From the NCBI GenBank assembly GCA_963662265.2, contig CAXXHA010000010.1, forward strand, positions 223,595 to 287,594: a stretch of 64,000 bases of DNA, read 5' to 3'. Below the pieces are notes generated by a model. It worked only from the letters and a program-made list of their open reading frames with translations. It was not told where the DNA came from and did no database searches. This DNA comes from Spirochaetia bacterium. GTDB lineage: Bacteria > Spirochaetota > Spirochaetia > CADAEX01. This document shows, piece by piece, positions 8,879 to 64,000 of this stretch. The position numbers and the translations under genes are program-made. The stretch's first letter is position 1, and each line of letters begins with the position of its first letter.

Positions 8879-8938
8879 TCCATAATTTGCAGCATTATTT
8901 TAAAAACAATGCTGCTATATATTCTACAACGAATAATA

Positions 8939-9026: not shown

Positions 9027-9160
9027 AGATGTATCGATATATACCAAATCCCGGTTCTATATGCTCTTCTCTACCTGATTAGGGCCTTATAATGCTGTCA
9101 GATCACTATCTCCTGCTTACTTCAAAACAGGGGACTTGTGCCTGTTACTTTCACAGGCAT

Positions 9161-9190
9161 AAAAAAAGCGCTGATCAGATGACCAGCGCT
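9161..9190 (-). terminator. Rho-independent terminator after the BMP lipoprotein gene (bidirectional shape)
   Basis: Stem AGCGCTG/CAGCGCT with a 10-nt loop, flanked by A7 on the plus strand, which gives a U7 tail on the minus-strand transcript. A second hairpin CCCCG/CGGGG lies at about 9201-9215. Confidence 0.8.
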
Positions 9191-9233
9191 TTTGTATATC
9201 CCCGTACACCGGGGTATTCATATTATTAAATTT

Positions 9234-28697: not shown

Positions 28698-30757
28698 ATG
28701 CTTTCCCCCCTTTTTATCCTGTCTATCAGTGAATAACTTCGAATAATTTCTGCACTGCTCCAAGCCTGTGCAAAAGTGCCCTTTCCCCTGCCGGGATTCA
28801 TCCCGTCAAAGACTTCAGAAACAAATCCGGCCCCCTCTTTGAAAAGGTGCTGTTCAAGAAAACTGTCAAGAAATGCCTTTATCTCTTCAGCAGATTTTTC
28901 CTTATCATCAGATGCTCTGAGAGAAGCTTCTGTATAAATTCCGAAAAGCCAGGGCCAAACAGTCCCCTGATGGTATCTGCTGTCCCGTTCATTTCCCCCG
29001 CCTGAATACTCACCCTTAAACTCAGGATGATCAGGGCTCAGAGTTCTAAGACCGGATGATGTCAGAAGCTTTTCCCTGCAAACCTCAACCACAGAGCTCT
29101 TTTCAGCCTCCCCTATCGGGGAAAAGGGGAGAGAAACAGCCCACAGCATATTGGGTCTTACTGAAAAATCTTTTCCTGATTTGCTTACAGTATCAGCAAG
29201 ATAGCCTTCAGAAATTTTCCTCTTCTTATCTGAACTGTAAGCTTCTGAGGAGGCTTCTTGACTGATATAAGTAGAAGATCCACCAGATTCCACCCAGTAT
29301 CTTTCCCTGAAAACACTCCTGATTTTATCTGCAGTTGATTTATATTTTGCAGGGATATCAGCTTTCATGAATTCAGAAAGTTCAACGAAAAAAAGGAGGG
29401 CATTGTACCATAGCGCATTTATATCGACAGGGGATCCTCCCCGGGGAGTTACAGGGATATTGTTGACCATGGCATCCATCCATGTAAGCTGTGTATTTTC
29501 ACTTCCTGCAGTCAGAAGCCCATCCTCACTGACTGAAACATCAGTGGCACTTCCATCGAAAAATGCATCGAGAATCCCTTTTATATATTCACGGAATTCC
29601 GAAGCAGCCTTCCTGCCTCCCCTGACATTTCTGTAAAGCTGCTGCACTGCATAAACATACAGAAGAGAGGCATCCACCGAATTATAGGATTCAAAACCCT
29701 GTGTACCTGAAAGAGTGTTTGGAAGAAGCCCATTTCGTATAAGATTTGAATATGACCTGAGTATCTCTATGCCTGTTTCAGTCCTTCCGTTGTAAAATGT
29801 CAGCCCGGGAAGGGAAATCATTGTATCCCTGCCCCATTCACCGAACCATGGATATCCTGCAACAATGGAACTCAAGCCGCTGCTGTTTACAATTATGAAA
29901 CAGCCGGCCTTTTCCCTGAGAACTCTCAGAAGGCTGTTTTTCTCATTGCTGTATTTTCTTCTTTCCTTCTGCCTGTTCTTTTTTTCCTCTTCATAAATTT
30001 TCCCGAAATCTGAAGGAGAGATTATTTCATTATTTCTAATGGAAACTCCCATGAATATTTCATCGCCTGTATTAAAGTCAGATGAAAATGTTCCCGGCAT
30101 TATTCTGTCTTCCCTGAAATCAAATCCCCTCTCCAGTTCCTTCAGATATTCAGTATCTTTTATCCAGTATGAGGTATCAGCAAAATCTGTTTCCCTGCTG
30201 AAGCTGATATTGATACCGGGAAATGAATCATAACAGGAAAAAGAATAGCTGCTGCCGGTTTTCCGCATTCTGATATCAGCATCACTGTTTTCCTTTGCCA
30301 GATGATGGGAATTCCTGAGACTGAAAAGAAGATTAAGCTTTAGAGAATACTTTTTCTCCTTTCCGGAACTGTTTTTCATCCTGACAACAAGCCCGTTTTC
30401 AGGTGTCATCAGAATTTCAAGAGTGAATTCACAGTCGCCTTTTCTGTATTTCCATGAAGGAAAGGGATAATCGGAAAATGACTCAAGGTAGCAGTATCCG
30501 TCAGGATGTATTTCGCCGGGATACTGGCTGTTTGAAAATTCACACCCGGAATCCCCGTCTTCAATCACCGGCTCTATACCTGAGAGCAGAAGAAACCTCC
30601 CCTCAAGCCCCTCTACCGGAACAACATACAGCCCGTGATATTTTCTTGTATTGCAGAGAGAAACTGTTGATGAGGCATATCCCCCCTTTCCGTCAGTTTC
30701 AAGCCATTCAATATCAGTTACAGGATATTCGCCTTTAAAAGAAATTTTATTATCCAT
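28694..30757 (-). CDS. Amylo-alpha-1,6-glucosidase-type glycogen debranching enzyme (GDE family)
   Basis: N-terminal GDE_N-like domain (TDGKGGYASSTV...TRKYHGL); C-terminal (alpha/alpha)6 domain (GYPWFGEWGRDTMISL, YHQGTVWPWL). Confidence 0.8.
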   Translation of the reverse strand: MDNKISFKGEYPVTDIEWLETDGKGGYASSTVSLCNTRKYHGLYVVPVEGLEGRFLLLSGIEPVIEDGDSGCEFSNSQYPGEIHPDGYCYLESFSDYPFPSWKYRKGDCEFTLEILMTPENGLVVRMKNSSGKEKKYSLKLNLLFSLRNSHHLAKENSDADIRMRKTGSSYSFSCYDSFPGINISFSRETDFADTSYWIKDTEYLKELERGFDFREDRIMPGTFSSDFNTGDEIFMGVSIRNNEIISPSDFGKIYEEEKKNRQKERRKYSNEKNSLLRVLREKAGCFIIVNSSGLSSIVAGYPWFGEWGRDTMISLPGLTFYNGRTETGIEILRSYSNLIRNGLLPNTLSGTQGFESYNSVDASLLYVYAVQQLYRNVRGGRKAASEFREYIKGILDAFFDGSATDVSVSEDGLLTAGSENTQLTWMDAMVNNIPVTPRGGSPVDINALWYNALLFFVELSEFMKADIPAKYKSTADKIRSVFRERYWVESGGSSTYISQEASSEAYSSDKKRKISEGYLADTVSKSGKDFSVRPNMLWAVSLPFSPIGEAEKSSVVEVCREKLLTSSGLRTLSPDHPEFKGEYSGGGNERDSRYHQGTVWPWLFGIYTEASLRASDDKEKSAEEIKAFLDSFLEQHLFKEGAGFVSEVFDGMNPGRGKGTFAQAWSSAEIIRSYSLIDRIKRGESI

Positions 30758-48390: not shown

Positions 48391-48591
48391 GTTTAAATAT
48401 TTTACATTTTGGCAGTTTGAAACAAAACGGCAAATCAAAGGATTCTATTCAGGCAGGAAATTCCTTTTCACACGTGATTATTAACAGATGCAAATCAACT
48501 AAAAACATGCAGGCAATTGACAAATCAGCAAGTATCGGGATATTTTAAATAAGCTTCTTAGCTGAACAGCAGATCAGAAGCTTTTATCTGT

Positions 48592-48675
48592 GCCGGCGTG
48601 GCGAAATTGGTAGACGCAGCAGACTCAAAATCTGCCGGGGGCAACCCTGTATCGGTTCAAGTCCGATCGCCGGTA
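48592..48675 (+). tRNA. tRNA-Leu (anticodon CAA), type II with long variable arm; no encoded CCA
   Basis: Hand-folded. Acceptor GCCGGCG/CGCCGGT (G1:U72); D-arm GTGGCGAAATTGGTAGACGC; anticodon stem GCAGA/TCTGC with loop CTCAAAA; variable arm; T-arm ATCGG-TTCAAGT-CCGAT. Confidence 0.9.
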
Positions 48676-48816
48676 ATATTTTAACCTATTTAAAAAATAA
48701 ATACTTTTTACTGTAATAATTATCCAAACATTTATTATTCAATTTCACAAAAAACATGCAAGAGTTTCAATAAAAGACTATTGCGGCTCAGCATTATCAG
48801 AAAATAAAAATAATCA

Positions 48817-48835
48817 TCTCTTTCACAGAAAGAGA
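48817..48835 (-). terminator. Terminator hairpin after the yccF-like gene
   Basis: TCTCTTTC-aca-GAAAGAGA, with a T-rich tail on the minus strand. Confidence 0.55.
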
Positions 48836-48841
48836 CATCCT

Positions 48842-49276
48842 TTACTTACTGATTCTGTCTGCTATCTTCTTTGCCATAACATCATCTTTCCCAACAACCT
48901 TGCAGCCTACTGGAAAGACAAGAAATTTTCCCATCCTTATATAAACTATTCCAACAGGTATTCCAATTATAGTAAAAAAGGCGAATATTCCTGATATCAG
49001 ATAGACAACAGCAGATACAATACCAACAGGGATCCAGATGATGTTGAGAATTATTCCTCCAACTCTTCTGACAGCTGAAACTTTATCCTTTATAAAGGTT
49101 TCCCGGACTATTGCCTTGCCATAGGGAAAAGCAGAGAGCCTTGAGAAGTTGAAGCATGCCTTACCAAGGGGAATACCTATTATTGTAATTGAAAACAGGA
49201 TTGATAATACAAAAAAAACAAGGGCCTGCCACCATCCAAAAAATATAAACCAGATAATGTTGAATAATGAAACCAT
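48842..49276 (-). CDS. YccF-domain inner membrane protein
   Basis: IIWFIFFGWWQALVFFVLSILFSITIIGIPLGKACF, repeated as IIWIPVGIVSAVVYLISGIFAFFTIIGIPVG (duplicated YccF motif). Confidence 0.75.
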   Translation of the reverse strand: MVSLFNIIWFIFFGWWQALVFFVLSILFSITIIGIPLGKACFNFSRLSAFPYGKAIVRETFIKDKVSAVRRVGGIILNIIWIPVGIVSAVVYLISGIFAFFTIIGIPVGIVYIRMGKFLVFPVGCKVVGKDDVMAKKIADRISK

Positions 49277-49305
49277 ATCTACTCCTTTTTAAATATATTC
49301 AGAAA

Positions 49306-49749
49306 TCAGTAATTATAATAAATATATTCCTGATCAATATTGTCCTCAATTTTTATTTTATTCAGCAGTGTTTCCGTAAAGCCGCCAAGGGGGTAGCCAG
49401 ATATGTCATCAAGCGAAACCCATACATATTCCTGGGCTTCATCATTTAAAACAACTTCATTGGAGCTGGTTCTGCATGTATAATCCATGAAAATAAAATG
49501 CCTGTCAGAATAATATTCGTTACTGTAGAAGCATTCCTTTAATCCGACAGGTTTTATATCGTAAATAGACAGCCCAGTTTCTTCAAGAATCTCTCTCCTG
49601 AGAGCATCTTCCATCTTTTCCAGGTGTTCAACATGACCGCCTGGGATTACATATTTATCATCCCATTTATGGGATTTGCAGAGCAATATTTTATTATCTG
49701 TATTGAAGATTACAGCACTTACTGTCAATTCCGGGTATTTCATAATCAA
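49306..49749 (-). CDS. NUDIX hydrolase
   Basis: Nudix box GGHVEHLEKMEDALRREILEETGL. Confidence 0.85.
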   Translation of the reverse strand: MIMKYPELTVSAVIFNTDNKILLCKSHKWDDKYVIPGGHVEHLEKMEDALRREILEETGLSIYDIKPVGLKECFYSNEYYSDRHFIFMDYTCRTSSNEVVLNDEAQEYVWVSLDDISGYPLGGFTETLLNKIKIEDNIDQEYIYYNY

Positions 49750-49947
49750 ATCATAACTTGTAACCTGATCCGAAGCAATATTACGAATGAGATCATTATT
49801 TTATTTCAAAGACTTTCTGTTCTTTCGTTTTTAAAAACCCAACTGATGCATAAAAACTATGTGTATTCACCCGGTTGCTGTTACACCGCACACGGGTTTT
49901 ATTTTCTTGTCTACTCGTATATTTCAAGATAAAATCATATATTAGTA

Positions 49948-51429
49948 ATGAACAGAACCATTATCAGATACAGATTAATTGAAATGTCTATCCCGTCATT
50001 GTTATTATATATTCTAATTCTTGCTTCATGCGCTCATGTAATTGTTCTGGATGTGGTCCCTCACGATGCGGATATAAAAATAAATAACAGAGAATATATC
50101 AGCAAAGAAGAATTCAAAACAAAAGAAAGAAACATATATGTATCTATAAACAAAGATGGATACATACCGGTAGAAACGGAACTTGCAAATATATCGGGGA
50201 AGAACAATGTATATAATTTCAGACTGGAGAAAATCAAATATCCCCTGCACATAAAAATGCTTTCACAGAACACCGAAGCGCATCTCCTGCTGAACTGTAA
50301 CGGGAAGAACATAAAAGGGAGTGAAATTAACCAGACAATAGAAAACGGGAATTACAGCTTATTCCTTATCAGCAATAATGAAAGACTTTCAATTCCAGTC
50401 ACAGTGGATCAGAAAATCTCCATGCTGATAAGGGATCCAGAAATACGAAACAATATCAGGAATATTGAGCTTACGCCTGAAGGTCTTTACACGTGCGGAA
50501 GTCAGCCGAAACAGGTAAACATATCGCCGGACAGCAGTTGTGCCTATATTACTTTATTGAATGGTACAGGTTTTCAGATTTTTGATATAAAAAGGAAAAA
50601 AATAATTAATACAATATCTCCGGGAACTGACGGGAAAAAGAAAGGTTTTGTAGAAGGATGTTTTATCCCTGATTTAAACACCTACCTTGTTTCCCAGATG
50701 ACAACAGGGAAGGTATATGAATATGATGTAAGCAACTGCAGGAAACCGGAACTTCGAAGAGTACTGAATACGAGAGGAAAATGGAGCAAGGTTGTTGCCT
50801 ACAACGATGAACTGGGAATAATAGCTGTATCCAACTGGCTCAGTAATACAATTTCCCTGATAAGTTATGAAAGCGGAAAAATTTTAAAACAGATAGATGA
50901 AATATCTGTACCGCGGGGTATAATTTTTTCCGGCAAAGGTGATTTCTTCTATGCGGCATCATACAATGATGGAACTGTAACAAAATACAGGACAAAAGAC
51001 TGGAAAAAGATTACAGAAATAAAAATTGAGGATTCCGCAATGCGGCACCTTGCCCTTACACAGGATGATTCAACGTTGTATGCAAGCGCCATGGGTATCG
51101 GAAAAATATACAGGATTGATACAAAAAGTTTCAAGGTTACAAAATCATTTTCAGGATTCACCAATCCAAATACAATAAAACTGACACCTGATAATAAATA
51201 CCTGGCTGTCTCGTCCCGGGGGAAAAACAATCCTGAGGGCTATCTCTTTAAAAGCAAAGAACCGGGATTTGTGACATTACTTGATCTGCATGGCAAAAAC
51301 AAAAAATGTGTAATTAAAGGGGGATTGCAGCCGACAGGCCTTGATATATCACCTGATGGCTCTTTCTTTATTTTCTCAAACTTTCAGGATGATACAATAG
51401 AAATATACAGGTTCAGAGAATATCCATAA
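49948..51429 (+). CDS. Lipoprotein with a PEGA-like domain and a YncE/YVTN-type beta-propeller
   Basis: Lipobox LILASC; the true start may be the ATG at 49984. Repeated motifs of the ...YASA...GKIYRID / LAVSSRG / ISPDGSF type. Confidence 0.6.
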   Translation: MNRTIIRYRLIEMSIPSLLLYILILASCAHVIVLDVVPHDADIKINNREYISKEEFKTKERNIYVSINKDGYIPVETELANISGKNNVYNFRLEKIKYPLHIKMLSQNTEAHLLLNCNGKNIKGSEINQTIENGNYSLFLISNNERLSIPVTVDQKISMLIRDPEIRNNIRNIELTPEGLYTCGSQPKQVNISPDSSCAYITLLNGTGFQIFDIKRKKIINTISPGTDGKKKGFVEGCFIPDLNTYLVSQMTTGKVYEYDVSNCRKPELRRVLNTRGKWSKVVAYNDELGIIAVSNWLSNTISLISYESGKILKQIDEISVPRGIIFSGKGDFFYAASYNDGTVTKYRTKDWKKITEIKIEDSAMRHLALTQDDSTLYASAMGIGKIYRIDTKSFKVTKSFSGFTNPNTIKLTPDNKYLAVSSRGKNNPEGYLFKSKEPGFVTLLDLHGKNKKCVIKGGLQPTGLDISPDGSFFIFSNFQDDTIEIYRFREYP

Positions 51430-51457
51430 TCTGTCTTAATATTTTAAGGATATAAGG

Positions 51458-51487
51458 AACAGCAGGTAATGTGCTTTACCTGCTGTT
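51458..51487. terminator. 11-bp stem hairpin between the convergent propeller and MCP genes
   Basis: AACAGCAGGTA-atgtgctt-TACCTGCTGTT. No long T tract on either side. Confidence 0.5.
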
Positions 51488-51495
51488 ATATATTG

Positions 51496-53448
51496 TTAAT
51501 CAATTTTGAAAAAGTCTATAACTCTTATCAGTTCCTTTGCTTCATTGGTAAGCTCTCCCGATGTGCCGGAAAGTTCTTCAGAGGCTGCCGCATTCTGCTG
51601 AATAACATTATCAAGTTCAATGAGAGCCCTGTTAATCTGTTCAACTCCTGTTGTCTGCTCTCCGCTTGCAGAGCTTATTTCCTGTACAAGCTCTGAAGTC
51701 TTTTCTATTTCAGGAACAAGTGCCATCAGAAGATCGCTGCTTTCCTTTGCTGTTCCCATTGTCTGGGTTGAAAGCTCTGTTATCTCACTTGCAGCTACCT
51801 GGCTTCTTTCAGCAAGCTTCCTGACTTCAGATGCAACAACAGCAAACCCCTTACCGTGCTCCCCGGCTCTTGCAGCTTCTATAGCGGCATTGAGGGCAAG
51901 CATGTTTGTCTGCCTGGCAATATCTTCAATAATTGAAATCTTCTCAACTATATCCTGCATTGCTTCAAGAGACTTTCCAAGCTGAGTTGCGTTACCAGCC
52001 GCATCAACCGCAACTTTCTTGGCTATATCGCCTGTTGTCCTGGAATTGTCCGCATTCTGCTTAATCGAAGCATTCATCTCTTCCATTGAAGCTGATACCT
52101 CTTCAGAGGAGGATGCCTGCTCAGAGGCTCCTGTTGCTATCTGCTGAGAGGAACCGTTTATCTGTTCACTGCTTGTGGAAAGCCTTTCTCCCGCCTCTTT
52201 TATCCGGCTTACTATACTTCTGAGAGAATCAAGCATGGTATTGAGAGATCTTCCCAGTTCCCCGAACTCATCCTTCTTCCTGAGGAATTCCTCAGGCGGA
52301 TCAAAGGTAAGGTCTCCGTTTGCAATGTGAGAAGCAAGAGATACTGCATCGCCGATAGGCTTTATTGTCCTGCTTATGAAAAAGAAAATCAGGACTGATA
52401 CTACTGCCAGTATGATTAGGCTGACAATAATAAACTGTGCAAGCTGCTGTCTTACAGGGGCCATGATCCGGTCTTTGTTTACAACAAGAAATACCGGCCA
52501 TCCAGTCTGCTCAATTACTTCAGGGAATATAATATAGTTTTTGCCGTCATCTCCATGATATTCAATTGTCTCCCTGCTACCCGCTTTAACACCTTCAAAA
52601 GCACTCTTCAGTTCATCAGGAAAGACATCGCTTTCAAGTATATTGCCTTTAAGAATAAGTTCCTTATCCGGGTGGGCAATTACTGTACCGTCTGTATCTA
52701 CAAGGTATGCAAAACTGTCATCATGAAGCTTCAATGAATCCACAAGCTGGAGGATTATGTCTATGGACAGGTCAATTGCGGTCACACCGAGAAGTATCCC
52801 GTTGTCCCTTACAGGAGTAATCGGGCTGACAACAACTGTCCCGGTAATCCCGTCAATATAGGGACTTGTAATTGATGTATAATCCTTTTCTATTGCTCCG
52901 GAATACCATGGCCTGTTTCTGAGAAAATAATACCTGTCTCCGGCATAATCCTCAGGATCAGCAATAAAGTCCTGAGTCTTTTCAAAACCGACATATGTGA
53001 GCATGATGGAATCGTCACTCTTCTTTATATTCCGGAATGTTTCAACCGCGTTATAATAAAGTCCCATTATTTCAGGATCCCTCTCCATATCAGGGGTGGC
53101 AACTTTAATTGTTGATGCAAGCTTCTTGATATGATCCGGAAGAGAATCATATTCAGTATCTATCGGGGATTCATAGAAATACTCTCTGTATTCCTTCTTT
53201 CTCATCAGATCAATTATCCATTGATTTTTAGACATGCTGTCCGGTATTGCCATCTTCCTGGCAAGAAACCCTTCAACATTATTTACAGTTGCCTCAAGTG
53301 TTGCAGATGCCTCACTGAATGTGGATTCAAGGAGAGTTTTGCTGAAATTCGTGAAAGTGATATACCCGTTCACAACAAAAAGGAAAATTACAGTCAAAAG
53401 AACAATAAATGTTATTTTAAGTTTCAGTGAATTTAAATTGATCTTCAT
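51496..53448 (-). CDS. Methyl-accepting chemotaxis protein (Cache-type periplasmic sensor, HAMP, signalling domain)
   Basis: Two TM segments flank a ~300-aa periplasmic domain. Signalling hairpin [40 protein letters not shown]. Confidence 0.9.
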
Positions 53449-53667
53449 GTTAAACCTCTCATGTTATTTCTATTCTGATTCCAGCAAAAATAAATTGAAC
53501 AAACAGCCTGAAGCATCAAATTCCGGTAAATAACTTAAAATAATTTTTTTCCTTTTTTAATTGATTATTTAAAAATGAAATCAGAATTAATATTATATAA
53601 TAATGATAACTCACGGTGGGAACAAAAACAAATACAATATTCAGATTTTTATATTAACGGTTTTTTT

Positions 53668-56472
53668 TCAGAAACCTTTCCGCTCCATTTTTCCCCAGCC
53701 GGAAACATTTCTCAGGCTGCTGATATATCCCTTGAGCCGGACAAGACCCAGCACCTGCCTGAAACCGAAATTCTCAAGGAAAGCATAGAAAACAAGGATT
53801 ATCTTATCAGAAATGCTGTAATACCTGGCCCTGTATTCCGCAATAAACAATGAACAGAGAGAAACAAAAATTCCAAGAAGAACAGAAGCTGAGAATATTA
53901 CAGCAATGGATGGAAGCTGAAGAGAATCTGAAAGAACAGCAATAAGGAAAACTGCAGCCCCCTGCACTTCAAACCAAGGTCCCATCATTTCAAAGAAGAA
54001 GAAGTACGGGAATGCAATAACACCAGCAGCCCCGTATGAGCGGTTGAAAAACATCTTGAAATGATAGCTCATTATATCAATAAGACCGCGCTGCCACCTG
54101 TCACGCTGACGTACCAGCACTTTCCAGCTTTCAGGAACTTCTGTCCAGCAGTTTGCATTGTAAATATATTTAATATCATAATCCCTTTTCTGCTCATTCA
54201 GCATCCTGGTTATCCGGACAACAAGCTCCATATCCTCGCCCACTGTATCTTTTTCAAAAAACTCACTGCCGGTAAGATATCCATGGACATCTATTACCCT
54301 GTTTCTCTTAAAAACACCGAAAGCACCGGATATTATAAGCAGTGCAATTTCAGACCAGCCAACTCTTCCTGCCATGAAAGACCTTATATATTCTACAGTC
54401 TGAAATTTGACAAGAGGGGATTTCCCAAGCCTTATCCTGCTTATGAATCCGTTTTCCACAGTGCAACCGTTTACCGGGAATATATTGCCGCCTGCCGCAA
54501 CAACCTCTTTGTCAGAATCGAGGAAGCTGCCCATTATTCTTAACAGGGCATCCCGTTCAAGGAGTGAATCTGAATCTATACCGACAAAATATTCACCGGA
54601 GGCAGCATTGATACCGCAGTTAAGGGAATCCGCTTTTCCCCCGTTGATTTTATCAACAAGCAGAAGTTCAGGATATTTTTTCCCCTTGTAAAGTGCCCTG
54701 ATACCCCTGGTTTTCAGGGATTCCATCACAGCAATATCTGTTTTTTCAAGTTCAAAATAATCTATCACTTTTTTAAGCGTGTTGTCTTTCGAACCGTCAT
54801 TGACAACAATAAGCTCATATTCGGGATACCTGAGATTCAGAAGAGAGTTAATACTTTCTATAATTGTATTCTCCTCGTTGAAAGCAGGAGCTATTATTGA
54901 AAGGGAGGGAAGTATGTTTTCCCTGAAAAGAAAGGAAAGCTGTTTTAGTTCCTGGTACCGGGCCTGTTTTACAACCCCTTTGAATGAGAATAAGAGCACT
55001 ATGAGATATATACTGTTAAGAGATACTGAATACACAGCAAACAGCCAGCTGAAAAAAGCAGAATAATTCCGAAAATGGAATTCAAAAGGATAACGCCCCT
55101 CCCAGAAATGGTGAAAGATCATATACAGAATTGGAGTTGTTACAAATGTAAGAATCAGGGCTGTATAAAGGAATTTCAGGCGGCTCTCTTCTCTGCTCTT
55201 TTTCTTCCTCTCCTTGAAATTTCTCCGCTTGAGTCCGGCCTTTATAATGAGTCTTTCATCGAGATAAAACTCAAAATCCCGTTTCAGTTCAGGGTTGTCA
55301 ACACTGTTGAGTACTGAAATTATCTCATCCTCAAGCTCCCGGTTGCTGTTCTTGTTCATAAAATTAATAAGACTGCTGACTTTTTTTCTGTAGACAAGTT
55401 TCTTGACAATAATATCTATCCTGCTTTTATCAACAGCAAGAAGAGATTCAAGAACATACTCAAGCCGGTTTGATATTACATCAAGCAGCCCTTCTGAAAT
55501 TTCCTCACTGATATCATTGAAAAAATACTCTGTTATGACTTTAAAATACTGGGGAGATTTCTTGATAATATTGGAAAGCGCAACAACTGCGTTTTCCTGG
55601 ACACAGCAGTCGGAAAGATATTTTATCAGAACTCCAACATTTTTCAGGTCCGGTTTTTCTGAAAGAGACTCGACAGCAAGCTTCCTGATTTCAAGATCGC
55701 TGTTATCCAGGTAGTTGTTAATATCTATAGCGGAAATATATTTTCTTGTAGCAGTTTCAAAAGCCATTCGTGATACGTGAATATCATCGGAATTTATTTT
55801 TTCAATAACATAATCTTCAAAAAGGAATGAAGGATAATACGACGCGTAACTCAAAAGAAGAAACTGGATTTCCTTTTCAGGCCTGTTTTTAAGGATTTCA
55901 AAATAATCAAGAAACCCGTCTTCAAAACCTGAAATAACACTTCGTATTTTTTCCTGCATCTTTTCAGGGACATCTCTGAGACTGTCAATAATCGAGGGGA
56001 TAACTGCAGAGTCTTTCTGTTCGACAAGAGAATTAATAATGTAAAGCTTGCGGGCACTGCTTTTTTCCCTGAGAAGGGACAGCATGAGGGCATTTACAGC
56101 TTTTGGAGATTTTACATATCCAAGGCATACAGCTGCATAAGTTTTCCTGTAGCCCCGGCCCCGCATCAGCATCTTGAGAAGCCTGTTGACTATCCCCCAT
56201 TTTTCAAGCAATTCAGATATTTCAACTTCAACACCGGAAGGAAAATCAACTGACTGCTTAAGCTCCATATATTCCTTCAGAATAATTTTCCAGTTTTGTT
56301 TCCTTAATATTAATCCGGTATCCCTGTTGTTTATTTTTCCGCTGAAATATTCCCTTATACTGCTTCTTTTCTTCATATTCAGTCTCTTTGAAACAAAGAG
56401 AATTACAAGCATCAGGACAGCGGCCGCATCAAGAAATAAAACTGTAAAAAAAATCAGGTATAACTGGGACAA
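53668..56472 (-). CDS. Processive family-2 glycosyltransferase (PgaC/IcaA-like synthase) fused to an N-terminal TM segment plus HEAT-repeat domain
   Basis: TTG start. HEAT-like units (YAAVCLGYVKSPKAVNALMLSL..., AVIPSIIDSL...). GT2 motifs SIIAPAFNEE, VVNDGSKDNT, GIDSDS, GEDMEL, QRDRWQRG. TM helices on both sides of the GT domain. Confidence 0.8.
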   Translation of the reverse strand: MSQLYLIFFTVLFLDAAAVLMLVILFVSKRLNMKKRSSIREYFSGKINNRDTGLILRKQNWKIILKEYMELKQSVDFPSGVEVEISELLEKWGIVNRLLKMLMRGRGYRKTYAAVCLGYVKSPKAVNALMLSLLREKSSARKLYIINSLVEQKDSAVIPSIIDSLRDVPEKMQEKIRSVISGFEDGFLDYFEILKNRPEKEIQFLLLSYASYYPSFLFEDYVIEKINSDDIHVSRMAFETATRKYISAIDINNYLDNSDLEIRKLAVESLSEKPDLKNVGVLIKYLSDCCVQENAVVALSNIIKKSPQYFKVITEYFFNDISEEISEGLLDVISNRLEYVLESLLAVDKSRIDIIVKKLVYRKKVSSLINFMNKNSNRELEDEIISVLNSVDNPELKRDFEFYLDERLIIKAGLKRRNFKERKKKSREESRLKFLYTALILTFVTTPILYMIFHHFWEGRYPFEFHFRNYSAFFSWLFAVYSVSLNSIYLIVLLFSFKGVVKQARYQELKQLSFLFRENILPSLSIIAPAFNEENTIIESINSLLNLRYPEYELIVVNDGSKDNTLKKVIDYFELEKTDIAVMESLKTRGIRALYKGKKYPELLLVDKINGGKADSLNCGINAASGEYFVGIDSDSLLERDALLRIMGSFLDSDKEVVAAGGNIFPVNGCTVENGFISRIRLGKSPLVKFQTVEYIRSFMAGRVGWSEIALLIISGAFGVFKRNRVIDVHGYLTGSEFFEKDTVGEDMELVVRITRMLNEQKRDYDIKYIYNANCWTEVPESWKVLVRQRDRWQRGLIDIMSYHFKMFFNRSYGAAGVIAFPYFFFFEMMGPWFEVQGAAVFLIAVLSDSLQLPSIAVIFSASVLLGIFVSLCSLFIAEYRARYYSISDKIILVFYAFLENFGFRQVLGLVRLKGYISSLRNVSGWGKMERKGF

Positions 56473-56474
56473 AA

Positions 56475-58562
56475 CTAATCCGCCTCTTTCCTTGAAAGAT
56501 TTTCCAGCAGTCCGGAGACTTCTGTTATGGAATAAGGCTTTCTGAAATAATAGAGGATATTAAGCTTAATTGCTTTTTCTATATATTCCTCATTTTTCTT
56601 GTGTGATGTAAAAATAAAAGGAATATTATTCAAAGTGGAATCTGACAGCATACTCTCCTTGATTGCAAAACCGTTTATGCCGGGAACCATTGTTTCACAG
56701 ATAATTGCAAGAGGCCTTGTCTTTTTTATGAAGCGAATAGCATCATTGCCGTTATTAAGAATCCTGCTGTTGAATCCCATTTCCCTGAGCCGCCCGGTAA
56801 GAAGTTCAACATATTTCACATCAGGATCAATAATAACCACAGGGTCAGTCAGCCTGGTAAATTCACCGCTTTCCTCTGATTTATCACAGAGTGTATTGCC
56901 TCCCCCTTTTTTTGCTGTGTGAATTCTGGAATAACCTGTATCAATAATCTTGTTTATTATCTCTTCGGGAGGCATTGTATCGTTGAAATATTCATGCATA
57001 TAAATTATTCCGATTGAAGATGTAATTTCTTCAAGGAATGAAGTTGATTCAGCAATCTCCCGCCTGATATGGTCGGCTGTTTCAAGAGCAAACTGGACTG
57101 TACAGTCGGGAATATAATAAGCGAAGGCTGCGCTCCCCAGCTTGAAAAGGTAATGGGTTACCCTGCTGTAATCTGCAGATATGAAATTCTTTATAAGGAA
57201 TGAAACACCTCGCAGCGCTTCATCGCCCCCTTCCCTCCCGTGACGGGCATTAATATCCATGATGTTATCAACACCGATAAAAAAAACAGCACTGTTTGTT
57301 TCTGTTTCAAGAGCTCCGGTAATTTCCTTTACCATATAGTTCCTGAAAAACATCTCATTCCTGAGACCGGTAACAGGGCATTTGGTAAGAGAGTCTTCTG
57401 TTTCCTCCAGCTCTCTCCTCATCCTGTTTTTTGTACCGTGAAGACGGACAGCTTCTTTATCAAGTGCAACATCTTTCGATTTCAGGTTAATCAGTATCCT
57501 TTTAAATGCTGCCGGATACCTGATTGAATACTGCCTCGAAAATTTCCTTACAAGGGTTTCAATCATACTCAGATATTCCATCCCCTTGCTGTCGAGAATT
57601 ACCTGGAAAAGCTTTTCCCATAAAGACTCGCCGTCAATTTTCAAGCTTATATCTGAAAGGGATGAAGTTTCTGAACTTATATTTTTTTTACTGCCTGTGC
57701 TGATTATGCGGCATTTAGAATTTATATGAATACCGCCGCTTTCAAGCATGGCATCAATCTCATCAAATCCGTACAGAGAGACAAGCCGCTCTATAACCTC
57801 TTCACAGAGAGTTATATAATCCTGCGAGCCGTCAAATTTCATCCGCTCAACATTTTTAAAGCTTCCGCATTCAATTCTGCTTATTTTATTATAAAAAAAT
57901 GAAAAATCATTTTTTATGATCCCGCCTCTTGCCGGCGCTATCATGTCAACTTTAAGCTGCTTGATTTTTTCGACTGCGGAATTTACAAGATCTGTATTTG
58001 AAAAAAAATGCTCATGATAACTCTTCATCATTCCGTAATTTTCTTTTTCCATGTACAGATTATTCTCAAAGGAAAAGCTGCTGAACATGGAGGAGGAAAA
58101 AAGGATTTTCTGCTTTACCAGGTAAAGATGAATCTCTTCAGGGGAATAAAGGTTTGAAGCAGGAAGAAAAAGCAGTTTCTCCCTGTTGGCAGTATCATAT
58201 TCCCACCTGTTTTCATTAATCACAAAAAAGTCGCATTCTGGATAGCATTTTGATAATGTATTGTACCCTCTCCAGTGAAGTGCAACTTCTGCTTTTTTCA
58301 CTTCGTTCAAAAAGAGAGGAAGAGAGGAACTCATGTCAGGGGATACTGTTGTAAGAACAATTAAAGATATTTTCTGTATATCAGTCAGGGATTCAATACT
58401 GTCTCTGACAGATTCAAAGCTGCTGTAGGGGCCGGGATTTATAAGAATGAACTCTTTTCCGCATTCAACAAGAAAAATATTGGGAACAAGACTTTCACTA
58501 CTCCCGTTATTCACCCCGATCCTGTAGACTGAATCGGAAATTCTGAAAACAGCTTTATTCAA
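56475..58562 (-). CDS. Three-domain signalling-type protein: flavodiiron-type MBL-like N-terminus, degenerate GGDEF domain, receiver domain with Glu at the acceptor position
   Basis: TTG start with AGGAG 7 nt upstream. ISDSVYRIGVNN...LIVLTTVSPDM sits where HxExDH is expected. VDNIMDINARHGREGGDEAL...RVTHYLFKLGSAAF sits where RxxD...GGDEF is expected. VVIIDPD...AIICETMVPGINGF...IFTSH...FRKP forms the receiver. Confidence 0.7.
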   Translation of the reverse strand: MNKAVFRISDSVYRIGVNNGSSESLVPNIFLVECGKEFILINPGPYSSFESVRDSIESLTDIQKISLIVLTTVSPDMSSSLPLFLNEVKKAEVALHWRGYNTLSKCYPECDFFVINENRWEYDTANREKLLFLPASNLYSPEEIHLYLVKQKILFSSSMFSSFSFENNLYMEKENYGMMKSYHEHFFSNTDLVNSAVEKIKQLKVDMIAPARGGIIKNDFSFFYNKISRIECGSFKNVERMKFDGSQDYITLCEEVIERLVSLYGFDEIDAMLESGGIHINSKCRIISTGSKKNISSETSSLSDISLKIDGESLWEKLFQVILDSKGMEYLSMIETLVRKFSRQYSIRYPAAFKRILINLKSKDVALDKEAVRLHGTKNRMRRELEETEDSLTKCPVTGLRNEMFFRNYMVKEITGALETETNSAVFFIGVDNIMDINARHGREGGDEALRGVSFLIKNFISADYSRVTHYLFKLGSAAFAYYIPDCTVQFALETADHIRREIAESTSFLEEITSSIGIIYMHEYFNDTMPPEEIINKIIDTGYSRIHTAKKGGGNTLCDKSEESGEFTRLTDPVVIIDPDVKYVELLTGRLREMGFNSRILNNGNDAIRFIKKTRPLAIICETMVPGINGFAIKESMLSDSTLNNIPFIFTSHKKNEEYIEKAIKLNILYYFRKPYSITEVSGLLENLSRKEAD

Positions 58563-58644
58563 AAGAATACTCCTGGTATTGGTAAGAACCTGCTGAAATC
58601 ACTTTTTTTATGGAATATACCGAGGTCCGCTTAAATTATCGGTG

Positions 58645-60429
58645 TCAACGTGTCTCATTATTATAAATTCTGACTCTTCTGCCCTTTATTTCCGCTTTAT
58701 AGCCGGGAATTACCCCGTTTACATCAGAAACAGCAATCTCTGAATTTTCAAATCCCGAGACAATAAATCCGGCAGAATGATCAAAATCATCATTATCAAT
58801 TTTTATTGTAATTTTTCCGGCTGCTTCAAGAATTCTGAATTCGAGATGAGATCTCTTACGCCAGAATTCCCCGAATTCTGTCAGGTTTCCCATCCACCCG
58901 TCCTGTTTATCTACATATTTCATCAGCCTTTCCTGGGCAACAAGCTTGTGGTTACTGTCCCTTGTATCGGAAGGATGCACTAAAAGAACAGTTACAGCAG
59001 AGTTGTCGCTGTTCAGTTTTACAACACGCTTCCAGACAGTCACAGCCTTATCAACCGTATCAGGTGTAAGATAACCAAGAGAATCATCAAGAGTGACAGG
59101 TATTTCAATGATATCTGTCTCGGGAGATCCCGGCTGTCTCTCCCTGAACGCATAGTAGGGAAAAGAGGTGAGTACATCGTTTGATGAAAAAGTAGAATCA
59201 TAGAGATACCCGTATTCCTCAAGAACCTTTATAAGTGAGCTGTGGTATTCAAGGTCTCCTGCCCTGAAGCTTATTGTATCCTGCCCCGAAATATCCCTGT
59301 CCAGGAGCTCCTTGCTAACCGCGACCTCTCCCCGCAGGGTTTTTCTCTTCAGAGGATCATATGTGGCAAAGGTGACATCTTTTTCACCCATTTCCGCCTT
59401 CGAAAGCTTTTTGTAGTGGGAGACAGTGTGTGACCCGATATCCCATCCCATCTTTTTCAGTTTCCTGATAGCATCAACATTTTCCCCAATATTGTAATAA
59501 TCAATATCAAGGTAATCGGTAAAATACTTTGTATTTTCAAAGAAAGTACTTGTTACTCCATATTTTTTTTCTAGCGCGGCATATTTAAGAGAATCGACAA
59601 ACGAGGTCTGTGCATCGACATCATGGCTCAGAACCAGTACCGGATTTTTAAGATGAGGAGTTGTTCCGATTATCAGACTTTTTCTGCTGTAGTTCTGGTA
59701 GAGGGCCTTCATTATAAGCATTATCGCATCGGCGGAAGGTTCAAAGGAATTAACATATTTCCTCTGCGCCTCAAAATCATCCCCCACCTGGGGAAGCATT
59801 ATTGCCTCAACAAAAGAAAGCCCCAGTAGATATGCAGTACCCCTTCCATAGATGTTTTTTATAAAAGCAGCTGATTTATCGCTGAATTCGCCAAGCACAT
59901 CTGAATAACCGTCAGCTTCATAGCCGTGGGACCATATCACCTCTTCATAAAATCTGTCCTCGCCGTTCCCGAGAGATATTGTCTTTTCCGCTTCATGGTC
60001 AATATATTCAAACACAGGATCCCTGCCTTTGAAAGAAAGCCGGTACCTCTTTTTCGATGGTAAATAGTTTTTCACTCCGAACAGGGGATAAAGTCTCCTG
60101 GAAATCTGCCCTGCCGCAAAAAGAGTTCCCCCCCCTTCGACATAATCGTAGATAGTATTTATTATTTCTGATTTAATATTCTTTTCAATGAGCGGCCCTG
60201 AAACATATGCAACATCATAATCAAAAATATCCTCAATATCTTCAAGAATTCTGTATGGTATCCCCTGAATATCAAAAATCCTTCTCATTGCTGTAAATTC
60301 GGCAGAATAACCCTTTAATGTACCGGGTTTGTAAAGTGCGGCTTTTACCGATTCTGTTACATCTTTTTCACAGTATGCTGCAGCAGATATGAACAGAAGG
60401 AAGAGAACTGTAAAATTTCTTACTTTCAT
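58645..60429 (-). CDS. Secreted polysaccharide deacetylase (CE4/NodB domain) with an N-terminal GATase1-like domain
   Basis: Signal peptide. NodB motifs VLSHDVD (Asp pair) and GSHTVSH (His-x3-His metal ligands). Confidence 0.75.
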   Translation of the reverse strand: MKVRNFTVLFLLFISAAAYCEKDVTESVKAALYKPGTLKGYSAEFTAMRRIFDIQGIPYRILEDIEDIFDYDVAYVSGPLIEKNIKSEIINTIYDYVEGGGTLFAAGQISRRLYPLFGVKNYLPSKKRYRLSFKGRDPVFEYIDHEAEKTISLGNGEDRFYEEVIWSHGYEADGYSDVLGEFSDKSAAFIKNIYGRGTAYLLGLSFVEAIMLPQVGDDFEAQRKYVNSFEPSADAIMLIMKALYQNYSRKSLIIGTTPHLKNPVLVLSHDVDAQTSFVDSLKYAALEKKYGVTSTFFENTKYFTDYLDIDYYNIGENVDAIRKLKKMGWDIGSHTVSHYKKLSKAEMGEKDVTFATYDPLKRKTLRGEVAVSKELLDRDISGQDTISFRAGDLEYHSSLIKVLEEYGYLYDSTFSSNDVLTSFPYYAFRERQPGSPETDIIEIPVTLDDSLGYLTPDTVDKAVTVWKRVVKLNSDNSAVTVLLVHPSDTRDSNHKLVAQERLMKYVDKQDGWMGNLTEFGEFWRKRSHLEFRILEAAGKITIKIDNDDFDHSAGFIVSGFENSEIAVSDVNGVIPGYKAEIKGRRVRIYNNETR

Positions 60430-60450
60430 AAAGTCTCTCCATATTAATTT

Positions 60451-61801
60451 TTATTCACTCCAGAATAATTTATCAGGATCGCTGTAAAGCTCACACGCTA
60501 TGATAAACCAGGCAGTTCCGGCAACAGAGGGATAATCACTGAAAAGATACGGGAGATTAACAGAAGAATAAACAAGTCCGCCGTCCACCGACATTTCTGT
60601 CATGTTCCTTATGATCTCGAGTCCTTTTTCAGGGCTTCCCCCCCTTATCCATGCGGCAGCTGCGCCAAGCGAACCTTCAGACCATACAACATTTATATCA
60701 TCCCATTCTGTGTTTTCAGAACCGTCAAACTGGTGCCTGTTTAGAGCCTTGTTCTCATAAACCGGTTCATTATAATAGGGGCCATACCCTTTATAACCGT
60801 TCCCTTCTGTCATGAAATTCCGGTCCATAGTCTCCAGAGCTGTCCTGGTTTTTCCTTTAGCCCCTATGCTTTCAAGAAACAGAGCGCCCCAGGAAGCGCC
60901 GTCCAGCGGAAGTGCGGTATCTCTTTTACCGTCTATTTTAATCCCCCGAATAAACTGGCCGGAGCTGTTATCCCAGAATGCTTTAAGAATTGATTTTTTC
61001 AGCAGCTCTCCCCTGTTGAGAAAAAAACCTGTCGCCTGTTACAAGGTAGAGGCTCTTCAGGAGAAAATAGATATCAATGTTATGTTCGACACTTACCCAT
61101 CCGACAGGATCATAGTTGTAAACCTCTTCAATACTTTCTTTCTCGTTTGAATATTCTACCTTGTAAGTTCCCCTCCCTCCTGTGACAAGGCCGTAGCGGG
61201 AATCATTTTTTTCACGCACCTGGTTTTCAAGGAGGTATTTAGCAATTCTTTCAGAAGCCTCTGTATACCGCCTGCCTGCTATGTCATCTTTATAGAAACG
61301 GCTCTCCTCTGTATTCCTGACAGAGACATAATGGGAAAGAGCATAACCTGCCCAGGCAAGGGCACCGCTTCTGATCATTGCCCCCTCATGATCGTTTTCA
61401 TCAGGCCAGCTGTTATGTGTATTATACGAAAACCAGAGACTTCCGTTTTCCCGGACCAATCGTGAAAGGGAATTAAGTATTGATTCAGCTTCCCTGTATT
61501 TTCCCGCCATTGTAAAAGCGATTGCAGCAACAGCATTGTCATATGCAAAAGACCTTCTTGCCAGGTAGCGGTATGCGGGATCGTTTTCAGGTATTTTATA
61601 GCTGAGAATAAGTTTTCTCCTGTCGGGAGATGGATTTTCAACAACAGAATTTGGCACTATCTGTCTTTTAAGCCATCTCAGGGATTCTTCATATGCATTG
61701 TTGAGATCTGTATTTTCCGGCTTGTTGAAGGGGGAATCAGCAGAAACAGGGACAACAGCTGCTGAAATAAGTAAAATAAAATACAATAATCTGTTTTTCA
61801 T
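60451..61801 (-). pseudogene. Secreted (alpha/alpha)6-barrel-like glycoside-hydrolase-type gene, interrupted by a frameshift in a T7 tract (minus strand; A7 at 61021-61027)
   Basis: ORFs 60983-61801 and 60451-60828 are in different frames. Removing one T from the run gives a continuous reading ...GDRFFLNRGELLKKSILKAFWDNSSGQFIRGIKIDGKRDTALPLDGASWGALFLES...METMDRNF with no stops. Confidence 0.75.
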
Positions 61802-61888
61802 AAAATACCTTACCGATAATTTGATAACTTAATTATTATATATTAAAAATAATAATAAACAGTTTTTTTTCAAGAAAATGAGGTTGCA

Positions 61889-63227
61889 ATGAAAAAATTC
61901 ACTTTTTTATTATTCATATTATTATTCTCGATAATTTTTCCGCTCTTTTCACAGAATATTTATGAAAACAGGGATGTGGACAAGCTTGTGGAACGGGGAA
62001 TAAAGTATGAAAGAGATAATAATCTGTATGAAGCAATAAAGACATACAGACAGGTACTTCAGCTGGATGATAAAAATTTCCTTGCTCTTATCAGGCTTGC
62101 GAAGCTTCTGAGCTGGACAGAACAGACAGAGGAAGCTCTCTCAATACTGAACCGCCTGGAAAAGGAATATCCTGGCAACAGTGAAACGTATTTCAGGAAA
62201 GCCCAGGTTCTCAGCTGGCAGAAAAAACTATGATGAATCAATAAATTATTACAACAAATTCCTAGAAATGGAACCTGGAGATCTTGATGCAACAATGGGG
62301 CTGGGGAGGGTTTATTTCTGGTCAAAGAAATACAGGAAAGCGATAGACTACTTTAACCTTGCAATAGAAAACAACTACAGCGTAACAGAAGCCCGGCTGA
62401 ATCTTGCAAAGATATATTTCAACATGAATGAATCGGTAAAAGCTGAAGAAATACTGCTTATTATCCTGGAGGAGGATCCTGATAATCCCGAGGCAAAAGA
62501 ACTTTACGCAACCCTTCCCCAGTTCATGAAATTCGAAGCTTCCCCATCTATTTTAAAAATGGATTTTTACGAAGGGGGAGATTTCGGCCTTAAACTGTCT
62601 CCTTTTCTCAATTACAGGCTGAACAAGATGTGGGACCTGCGTGTAAAATATGATTTTCTTTCTGCTGACAGCAAATCAGACAGTATATTCTCTGCTGGAG
62701 CCACATTTAAAGGGGTTAAAAACCTTGCACTTGCTGCAGATATATCAGCGGCTGTCAATCCTGAACTGACTGAAGCCTTCAAGATTGCGGGGCAGGCCAA
62801 CTACAGTATAAACAGAAATATCGGAGCAGGAATGGTTGTAGAGCATCTTGCATTCAAGGATATAAACAATCCTGTACAGAGCAATGAGAACCTCACAATT
62901 CTTAAACCATCTTTCAGTTATTATTTTACAGATATAAGCTACACAACAATCCAGTATATTCAGTATCTTTACGGATCAGGATTCAGCACATCTGCTGTAA
63001 GCCTCAATATTACACTGGAATACTATAATAAAAATGCCCTCAGCTTTGCGGTAACATATGGCGGAGACTATGAATCAATGGATGAAGACAGGGAGCTTTT
63101 TGAAGCGGGGGGTGGCATTTCCTATCTCTTCAACAACAATTTCCAGCTGGGATTAGGATTTACACATATTGAATCTGAATACAGCACAACAAATCAGGTT
63201 ATTATATCGCCTGTAATAAGGTGGTAG
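61889..63227 (+). pseudogene. PgaA/BcsC/NfrA-like outer-membrane protein (signal peptide, TPR repeats, C-terminal beta-barrel), interrupted by a frameshift in an A6 tract at 62222-62227
   Basis: ORFs 61889-62233 and 62181-63227 overlap in different frames. An A5 tract would read ...AQVLSWQKNYDESINYYNKFLEMEPGD..., a continuous TPR. The C-terminus ends ...ISPVIRW (aromatic terminal residue). Confidence 0.75.
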
Positions 63228-63250
63228 GTAAATATATTATTCTGTAAAAA

Positions 63251-63291
63251 AGCTGATAAACCACTTCTGGAACAGGTTATCAGCTTTTTTT
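63251..63291 (+). terminator. Rho-independent terminator after the TPR/beta-barrel gene (bidirectional shape)
   Basis: AGCTGATAA...TTATCAGCT stem (9 bp) followed by T6 and preceded by A5. Confidence 0.8.
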
Positions 63292-63382
63292 ATATCCGGA
63301 AAACAACAGCTCTTCATGATAATTTCTCATGTATAGGATGATATTAAATATACCATTATTTTCCGGCAGTGTTTTAATCCTC

Positions 63383-63411
63383 TTGACTAAAAAGGGGTGA
63401 ATAATTATAAA
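63383..63411 (+). promoter_or_regulatory. Near-consensus sigma70 promoter placed for a leaderless or near-leaderless transcript
   Basis: TTGACT, 17 nt, TATAAA. The -10 box ends 8 nt before the ATG at 63420, and there is no Shine-Dalgarno sequence. Confidence 0.5.
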
Positions 63412-63419
63412 CTCACCCT

Positions 63420-63782
63420 ATGAGCGGAAAAATCAGAGACTTTGCAGAAAAAATACTCGGTATCAGCCACGATATTCTTAAAAGAAGGACTGTTCACATA
63501 AAATTCATTGTCACTCCCGGAAAAGTTGTTTTTGATCCCGAACTGTTTGTTAAATTCGAGGAAACTTACGGTGAGGGAAGCCTCTACCACAAGGATATTG
63601 CTGATGCAAATAATGTTCAGAGAGGAGCAGTCGCAGGCGGGGCCTATGTCTCTGTATCTCATGACAATGTTAAAATTACCGGATACAGCCAGGATTTCGG
63701 GTACATAACCGGCTATGAGGATCTTGTAGAAAACTACTTCAGAAACTATTTCGACTGTCCTGTTGAATTTGAATCAGCATAG
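63420..63782 (+). CDS. Hypothetical 120-aa protein
   Basis: The ORF has balanced, protein-like composition. No family recognised. Confidence 0.45.
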   Translation: MSGKIRDFAEKILGISHDILKRRTVHIKFIVTPGKVVFDPELFVKFEETYGEGSLYHKDIADANNVQRGAVAGGAYVSVSHDNVKITGYSQDFGYITGYEDLVENYFRNYFDCPVEFESA

Positions 63783-63916
63783 CTGAATCATGAAAGGATT
63801 TCAGGCATGGAATTTCTTCCCACTTCAGTAAAATAAATAGAATAAAACTCTTTTAATTTTTTAATAATTCAAACCCGGCAACTATACTGTTCCGGAACGG
63901 ATTTACTATCTCAATA

Positions 63917-64000
63917 CTATTCAAGAGCAACTGTTTCAGCAAAAATCTGCTCAAGATCTCCTGAGATCTCGGTAAAGACTTTATAGACATCCGGATCAAA
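63917..64000 (-). CDS. C-terminal fragment of an unidentified gene; the start lies outside the window
   Basis: The minus-strand frame is open from the window edge: ...FDPDVYKVFTEISGDLEQIFAETVALE, stop at 63919-63917. Confidence 0.3.
   Translation of the reverse strand, partial: FDPDVYKVFTEISGDLEQIFAETVALE

Follow-up and report, generated by a model that had tools for sequence, protein, structure and literature searches.

A five-gene locus for a putative synthase-dependent exopolysaccharide system in a Spirochaetia bacterium

What do the five genes at positions 53668-63227 of this stretch of Spirochaetia bacterium DNA encode, and does the set belong to any polysaccharide system already described? 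The stretch, hereafter the window, comprises 64,000 nucleotides of contig CAXXHA010000010.1, and in this part of it the reading of open reading frames (ORFs) and of all six frames finds five genes spread over seven ORFs; four lie on the minus strand and the fifth, which encodes a porin, is divergent. Together they bring the features of the general class: a processive GT2 synthase, an exporter made of TPRs and a barrel, a periplasmic polymer-modifying enzyme and a putative glycoside hydrolase. The locus is read here as a synthase-dependent exopolysaccharide system of a class for which no description was found in the literature, a reading to which a probability of roughly 0.7 is assigned. The first-pass annotation of this DNA had described a re-wired, pga-like locus of five genes. 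Each part that it named is found again in place, in the ORF list, in Pfam and NCBIfam matches and in the motifs themselves, and all five genes are present, but only three of them are intact here, the hydrolase and porin genes being frameshifted. The features are as follows (homologous loci carry the prefix L).

53668..56472, minus strand: HEAT-GT2 synthase, 934 residues
56475..58562, minus strand: ODP-GGDEF-REC regulator, 695 residues
58645..60429, minus strand: CE4 deacetylase, 594 residues
60451..61801, minus strand: (alpha/alpha)6 hydrolase-like gene, ORFs of 272 and 125 residues, repaired product of 449 residues
61021..61027, unstranded: A7 run (T7 on the coding strand) with a +1 insertion in the hydrolase gene, relative to L001 and L008
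61802..61888, unstranded: divergent spacer between the hydrolase and porin genes, 87 bp
61889..63227, plus strand: TPR and beta-barrel porin, ORFs of 114 and 348 residues, repaired product of 445 residues
62222..62227, unstranded: A6 run with a +1 insertion in the porin gene, relative to its orthologues and L008

Composition of the locus

The synthase is predicted to be an inner-membrane protein. It begins with a transmembrane segment (residues 6-24), followed by a HEAT-like solenoid (approximately 40-420) that is predicted to be cytoplasmic, two transmembrane segments (434-495), the GT2 domain (522-800) and C-terminal transmembrane segments (approximately 810-880), all of these segments being transmembrane-like stretches of the sequence. 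The GT2 families of Pfam match residues 522-878, in which the motifs NDGS558, DSD633, GEDMEL745 and QRDRW789 can be read; the last three are those from which a processive GT2 had been called at first, and the catalytic motifs are invariant in ten orthologues. The gene starts with TTG, 2 nt after the stop codon of the regulator gene, a start that is supported because residues 1-20 are conserved in the orthologues. The N-terminal region of about 400 residues, for which HEAT repeats had also been proposed, gives a weak Pfam HEAT_2 match (residues 110-168, 24.6 bits, below the cutoff of 27.7) and aligns with the separate HEAT_2 protein of L009 (hhalign probability 71%, E 4e-5). When a profile of the family is compared with the PDB, HEAT proteins of the alphaRep type match this N-terminal domain, and the matches returned were these and short GT-A N-terminal ones, with no membrane synthase among them.

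The 695-residue regulator is made of an ODP domain (28-213), a helical linker (approximately 240-380), a GGDEF domain (396-557) and a pseudo-receiver (575-682), the three domains being recognized by Pfam (ODP PF19583, 105 bits; GGDEF; Response_reg). Residues 21-233 align with the ODP of Treponema denticola (6qrq, E 7e-14), and comparison with 6qrq finds HQDPD replaced by TVSPD, and the aligned His, Asp and His of ODP replaced by Ser or Tyr, Ser and Arg, respectively. From what is known of flavodiiron-type sites, we take these His and Asp positions to be the di-iron ligands; all of the positions so assigned except one Asp are replaced, and the di-iron set thus appears incomplete. The GGDEF motif reads GSAAF and the I-site RxxD reads RVTH, while the receiver has Glu at the phospho-acceptor position (ICETMVPG), at the end of beta3, in all four orthologues. 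The description of this protein as three degenerate signalling domains is thus borne out, each site having been lost. Since four orthologues, at 59-72% identity, have exactly these degenerate motifs, the regulator seems to be maintained as a non-catalytic subunit. A scan for transmembrane-like segments found none in it.

Upstream of the regulator lies the CE4 protein, which consists of a signal peptide, an N-terminal domain, the CE4 domain (approximately 265-500) and a beta-rich C-terminal tail. Pfam assigns it to Polysacc_deac_1 (33.7 bits), and H269, D270, D272, H334, H338, R389 and H485 do not vary among eight homologues, the most distant of them at 26% identity, in agreement with the intact Asp and His ligands reported before. 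Its profile matches in the PDB are weak and include deacetylases and a GH42 beta-galactosidase (residues 436-596). The homologue in L013 carries a precomputed Glyco_hydro_42M match, and the N-terminal domain may bear a marginal resemblance to the trimerisation (GATase1-like) domain of GH42.

The hydrolase, which carries a signal peptide readable from the sequence, was modelled with AlphaFold2 as an (alpha/alpha)6 toroid with high confidence (predicted local distance difference test, pLDDT, 95.1; predicted TM-score, pTM, 0.92), which agrees with the secreted (alpha/alpha)6-like enzyme first proposed. Foldseek returned generic (alpha/alpha)6 enzymes only, with TM-scores of 0.55-0.63 and 10-13% identity: MmpH, dextran dextrinase, AGE-type epimerases, GH76, GH63, GH94 and GH100. 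No Pfam family matched the protein, and its profile found nothing among PDB sequences even at E 10. A Pfam domain is on record in just one of the 112 homologues retrieved (P0095, PF11984). The model and these searches point to a secreted glycoside-hydrolase-like enzyme of an uncatalogued family. A homologue in Rossellomorea (Bacillaceae) is solitary, with the other genes of the system absent nearby.

The porin was modelled with AlphaFold2 on an intact homologue that is 96% identical to it (P0273, pLDDT 88). It has a signal peptide, approximately 5.5 TPRs at residues 28-207 (11-12 helices) and a 14-strand barrel at 215-444, as expected from its earlier description as a small, divergently transcribed outer-membrane protein with TPRs and a barrel. 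Foldseek aligns the model with BcsC (9b8h) from end to end (E 6e-10), and the barrel is similar to that of 14-strand OmpG (Foldseek TMt 0.78). Pfam finds TPR families, a weak OMP_b-brl match and a weak TPR_Slam match. In L017, at 8161-9483 on the minus strand, the TPR part (8764-9483) and the barrel part (8161-8760) match two adjacent ORFs, so that this copy of the porin gene, too, may be broken.

The 87-bp spacer at 61802..61888 presumably holds the promoters of both transcription units, as the arrangement of the genes indicates. Its matches to consensus promoters are weak on both strands, and scans for promoters and terminators gave nothing informative.

Distribution and gene order in relatives

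The five genes occur in the same order in four related loci, L001, L006, L007 and L008, one of which is a Spirochaetia chromosome assembled from a metagenome, with synthase identities of 66-100%. Distant loci (L009, L013, L017, L018, L020, L042 and L060) contain the same parts differently ordered. In L009 the receiver protein (REC), the TPR-porin, a HEAT protein (409 residues) and the GT2 (438 residues) are encoded on one strand, and the hydrolase and CE4 on the opposite one. L013, from a Kofleriaceae metagenome-assembled genome, holds GT2, REC (126 residues), HEAT (1201 residues), a TPR protein (455 residues), GH42M-CE4 and the hydrolase; L060 holds REC-Hpt-REC, a TPR protein, HEAT, GT2, hydrolase and CE4; and L002 (Rhodothermales) has PAS-GAF-GGDEF-EAL, HEAT and GT2. 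All five are collinear in L042, in the order porin, GGDEF*-REC* (the asterisks marking degenerate domains), HEAT-GT2, hydrolase and CE4.

Co-occurrence was measured by scanning 80 hydrolase-seeded metagenome loci with hidden Markov models (HMMs) built from the window proteins, and counts were restricted to the 16 independent loci that have 6 kb or more of sequence on each side. CE4 is present in 14/16, the TPR protein in 10/16, the family GT2 in 9/16, with L013 as a further case in which the GT2 runs off the end of the contig, and REC in 8/16. The HMM for HEAT had been made from the fused clade and did not pick up the HEAT proteins that are encoded separately, and these were called with Pfam: a HEAT_2 protein adjoins the split GT2 in all 11 loci checked (8/8 tested, plus L002, L009 and L013). 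A search of 1.84 billion cluster representatives (50% identity) with the HEAT-GT2 profile gave 1217 representatives at E <1e-30, and among the best 150 at least 63 match the profile along practically its entire length. The guanine-plus-cytosine (GC) content of the family loci ranges from 37 to 70%. The layout is indeed unlike that of pga, but the word re-wired does not hold, the family being widespread and no one-off rearrangement. With the genes co-conserved and no gene-for-gene match to pga, the first-pass annotation therefore stands on both points.

The receivers of the split systems keep the canonical Asp (L009 and L013). In three lineages (the window clade, L022 and L042) the fused HEAT-GT2 is preceded by a dead GGDEF with a pseudo-receiver, and the spacing, read in four loci (the window, L001, L007 and L042), places this gene 2-4 nt upstream of the synthase gene. 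L022, of high GC content, has SGSMF in place of GGDEF, RESH at the I-site and Glu in place of the receiver Asp; L042 has NGPRF and Gly, respectively. The ODP domain occurs in the window clade only. From these sequences, the receiver domain appears to be the conserved regulatory element, to which GGDEF was added only with fused synthases. In L006 (6641-8560) the regulator orthologue has only 639 residues, ends within the receiver and is separated from the synthase gene by 118 nt, where 2-4 nt is usual elsewhere; this copy, too, may be damaged.

Frameshifts in the hydrolase and porin genes

The hydrolase gene reads through if one T is removed from the T7 run, and the porin gene if one A is removed from the A6 run. 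DNA alignment with three orthologues finds one extra base at each of the two sites; L001 has T6 in the hydrolase gene. In the sequence as it stands, then, the export arm is off. The closest relative, metagenome contig L008 (ENA ERZ21831104, 1.14 Mb), is 99.8% identical over window positions 50451-64000, from which it differs by 24 substitutions and exactly the two one-base insertions, and its hydrolase (449 residues) and porin (445 residues) are intact.

Are these insertions real? Homopolymer errors of sequencing or assembly would leave the locus functional in the source organism, and several observations agree with such an origin: both are +1 changes in runs of A (A6 to A7 and A5 to A6), a nearly identical contig has both genes intact, and no added amino-acid decay is seen in the window lineage. 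On the other hand, no other split gene was seen among the approximately 50 genes of the window, and since only 6 of its 178 A/T runs of at least six bases lie in the two broken genes, the chance that two random insertions would both fall in runs of the hydrolase and porin genes is about 0.001. The 22 coding substitutions relative to L008 (15 synonymous, 7 non-synonymous) also look like real divergence rather than noise, given the excess of synonymous changes. An artefact thus seems a substantial possibility, though rather less than an even one, and a real and recent knockout, or a phase-off state, is somewhat more likely.

All seven amino-acid differences fall in CE4, the hydrolase and the porin, and at five of the seven the window has the allele that most of three outgroup orthologues carry. 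That selection on the export arm had been relaxed in the window lineage was considered and rejected, because these outgroups place most of the derived alleles in L008; as the window lineage has accumulated no extra amino-acid decay, any inactivation would be recent. If real, the frameshifts would be a natural test in which the export arm has been lost and the synthase kept. Separately, three of the 24 substitutions lie within five bases (61000, 61003 and 61004; region 60997-61004), 17-21 nt from the hydrolase frameshift, and change Leu266, which is His in L008; this cluster may have arisen by local mutation, or it may reflect noise in the assembly of L008.

Known systems, control of the synthase and neighbouring genes

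One close point of comparison is PgaABCD of E. coli, with which the locus shares a membrane GT2, a periplasmic CE4, an exporter made of TPRs and a barrel, and an attached glycoside hydrolase (predicted in the present case). It could be proposed that the locus is a divergent operon of this type making poly-beta-1,6-N-acetylglucosamine, and that its parts, apart from additional domains, are orthologous to PgaC, PgaB and PgaA. The synthase agrees best with this idea: its top NCBIfam match is PgaC_IcaA (TIGR03937), and over 367 residues it shares 29% identity with E. coli PgaC, all catalytic motifs being aligned. The match, however, reaches 116.5 bits against a cutoff of 422.3 and covers only profile positions 97-352, and the model of the XrtG-associated GT scores nearly the same (100 bits). 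The window synthase has in addition an N-terminal transmembrane helix and the 400-residue HEAT region, both lacking in PgaC.

The other components depart further. CE4 shows no significant similarity to PgaB (BLASTP E 0.47); its N-terminal domain is different and it lacks the GH153 domain, the hydrolase being here a separate (alpha/alpha)6 protein. The porin shows none to PgaA (BLASTP E 0.13), scores 15-18 bits on PGA_TPR_OMP (TIGR03939; cutoff 366.65), and has 445 residues and 14 modelled strands as opposed to 807 residues and 16 strands in PgaA. A PgaD-like partner was not found: the 219-bp gap 3' of the synthase gene has no ORF of at least 80 residues, and the neighbours are the regulator and a methyl-accepting chemotaxis protein (MCP). 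Pfam found no PilZ or MshEN match in the locus proteins, and no c-di-GMP (cyclic di-GMP) module in the locus. The absence of PgaD, PilZ and MshEN and the distance from the pga layout had both been pointed out at the start and hold, while the label pga-like suits the synthase but not the other parts, CE4 and the porin having no significant sequence similarity to PgaB and PgaA. Every test specific to pga was negative, leaving only the remote homology of the synthase, and a pga operon in disguise is an unlikely account of the locus.

The resemblance to other systems is equally partial. With Bcs the locus shares the whole-length structural match of the porin to BcsC and a soluble periplasmic (alpha/alpha)6 enzyme that accompanies the synthase, as BcsZ (GH8) does; it differs in having CE4, in the absence of PilZ and BcsB, in a far shorter TPR region and in the hydrolase, which lacks a GH8 signature and matches nothing in Pfam. 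The porin can also be set, by description, beside Slam of Neisseria, which is of similar size and has N-terminal TPRs and a 14-strand DUF560 barrel, but apart from the weak TPR_Slam matches the likeness is architectural only, DUF560 not being matched. Slam moves lipoproteins, not polysaccharide. The ODP of T. denticola (6qrq, 6qwo), to which the regulator aligns, stands alone beside a chemoreceptor, whereas the ODP of the window is fused to GGDEF and REC. Keyword searching brought up EmbRS of Rubrivivax and wps/gsf of Actinoplanes, which were discarded as unrelated Wzx/Wzy or PEP-CTERM clusters. In the literature consulted, whose coverage is incomplete and which includes a 2020 survey of synthase-dependent operons, no HEAT-linked synthases, control by receivers or spirochaete examples were found, and the initial statement that no characterised system has this composition is upheld to that extent.

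A catalytically dead GGDEF protein encoded beside a polysaccharide synthase recalls PelD, YdaK and PssE, and by analogy the regulator is presumably a regulatory subunit of the synthase. The analogy could be carried further, to a c-di-GMP receptor of this type that activates the synthase through the I-site of its degenerate GGDEF. Its position directly upstream of the synthase is that found in pel, yda and pss; N438 and D447 are retained, which, by our own placement against the canonical GGDEF consensus, we take to be guanine-contacting residues; L006 and L008 have genes for REC-HD-GYP and HDOD-HD proteins at a distance of a few kb; and in L002 the PAS-GAF-GGDEF-EAL gene is upstream of HEAT and GT2. 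Yet a conserved His stands where the I-site would have its Asp (RxxH, in both the window clade and L022). PelD, YdaK and PssE have a membrane anchor, and the regulator is soluble; it is moreover fused to a pseudo-receiver and, in the window clade, to a dead ODP. Most of the relatives use a plain receiver without GGDEF, and a c-di-GMP receptor is accordingly an improbable role for this protein.

Control would then probably be exerted by the receiver protein on the HEAT module instead of by c-di-GMP, if the sequences of the family are a guide. What the systems share is a receiver-fold protein beside HEAT and GT2, and it is for this reason that the receiver is inferred to act on the HEAT module. 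As a working model of the whole system, the HEAT-GT2 synthase would polymerise a uridine diphosphate (UDP)-linked sugar, probably an N-acetylhexosamine, and thread the chain through the inner membrane; the periplasmic CE4 would partially deacetylate the chain; the (alpha/alpha)6 enzyme would trim or clear the polymer; and the TPR domain of the porin would take up the chain, which the 14-strand barrel would pass across the outer membrane. The cytoplasmic receiver-domain protein would act on the HEAT solenoid of the synthase and set its output, in one direction or the other. Most lineages would use a phosphorylatable receiver and a separate HEAT protein, while the fused lineages (the window clade, L022 and L042) would use a non-phosphorylatable pseudo-receiver with a dead GGDEF, to which a dead ODP was added in the window clade. 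Because such a pseudo-receiver could not be phosphorylated, the partner would be a permanent subunit or a ligand sensor and not the output of a two-component system.

The understood synthase-dependent exopolysaccharide systems are few (alginate, cellulose, PNAG or poly-N-acetylglucosamine, Pel and Nfr). As far as we know, c-di-GMP gates almost every one of them. It is tentatively suggested, as a proposal with rather less than even odds, that the HEAT-partnered GT2, the 14-strand TPR porin, the new (alpha/alpha)6 family and the GH42M-like CE4 define a distinct and phylogenetically broad Gram-negative class, which would be switched by docking of a receiver on the HEAT solenoid, that is, by phosphorylation and not by c-di-GMP, with fused lineages in which a permanent pseudo-receiver subunit recruited dead GGDEF and ODP domains. 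If true, this would be a further class that extends from Spirochaetia to Myxococcota and through many soil, sediment and wastewater metagenomes, characterized by a cytoplasmic HEAT module, control by a receiver, a minimal 14-strand porin and an uncatalogued glycoside-hydrolase-like family. Its confirmation would bring a new regulatory logic for the production of biofilm matrix, a candidate CAZy family and a compact export porin for structural work.

Several points weigh against this reading of the locus. The family is known from sequences and predicted folds, which show its domains, the state of its motifs and its co-conservation, and the polymer and the direction of regulation are deduced; the HEAT assignment in the window leans on a Pfam match below threshold and an hhalign result of moderate strength; and the contact between HEAT and receiver is deduced from co-occurrence and tight gene spacing, when receiver genes are common and part of the adjacency could be due to chance. 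Of the parts, L081 and L086 carry no more than HEAT, GT2 and the hydrolase. Finally, the hydrolase-CE4 pair is found with no family GT2 within 9-10 kb in five loci (L010, L011, L035, L039 and L040), so that it may have an independent role. That the pair is altogether a separate module for degrading or remodelling glycans, only sometimes placed beside a synthase, so that the locus would not be one machine, is nonetheless the least probable of the alternatives, since in most long loci it stands beside GT2, HEAT and TPR genes in several orders, both proteins carry signal peptides and, in L042 as in the window clade, are encoded in the same operon as the synthase, and in the genomes with orphan pairs the synthase genes can lie elsewhere.

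The exopolysaccharide system, as read here, is bordered by genes that were not counted in it. Directly 3' of the porin gene, at 63420-63782 on the plus strand, a 120-residue ORF with no Pfam match, signal peptide or transmembrane segment is kept in L001, L006, L007 and L008 (HMM 244-253 bits) and absent from the distant loci; it was excluded because it is conserved only in the close clade. Further out on the porin side, the REC-HD-GYP and HDOD-HD genes are found within a few kb in L008 (6804-7886 and 4290-5162, positions just beyond the window end at 64000), L006 (548-1615) and L007 (26-898). REC-HD-GYP is a putative c-di-GMP phosphodiesterase, and these neighbours could link the locus to c-di-GMP turnover.

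On the synthase side, the interval from the synthase to a radical-SAM gene (48591-53448) is variable among relatives. In the window it contains a dCache-HAMP MCP, a beta-propeller protein, NUDIX, YccF and tRNA-Leu(CAA); L006 has the MCP only and L007 none of these genes, which is why the MCP that adjoins the synthase was left out of the system. The closeness of an MCP to a protein with an ODP domain recalls the pairing of ODP and chemoreceptor in T. denticola, with the ODP ligand positions lost here. At 26208-30757, on the minus strand, adjacent ORFs for a glycogen phosphorylase-like protein (851 residues) and an amylo-alpha-1,6-glucosidase-like protein (687 residues), both named by reading their translations, overlap due only to an upstream TTG start and represent ordinary glycogen catabolism.

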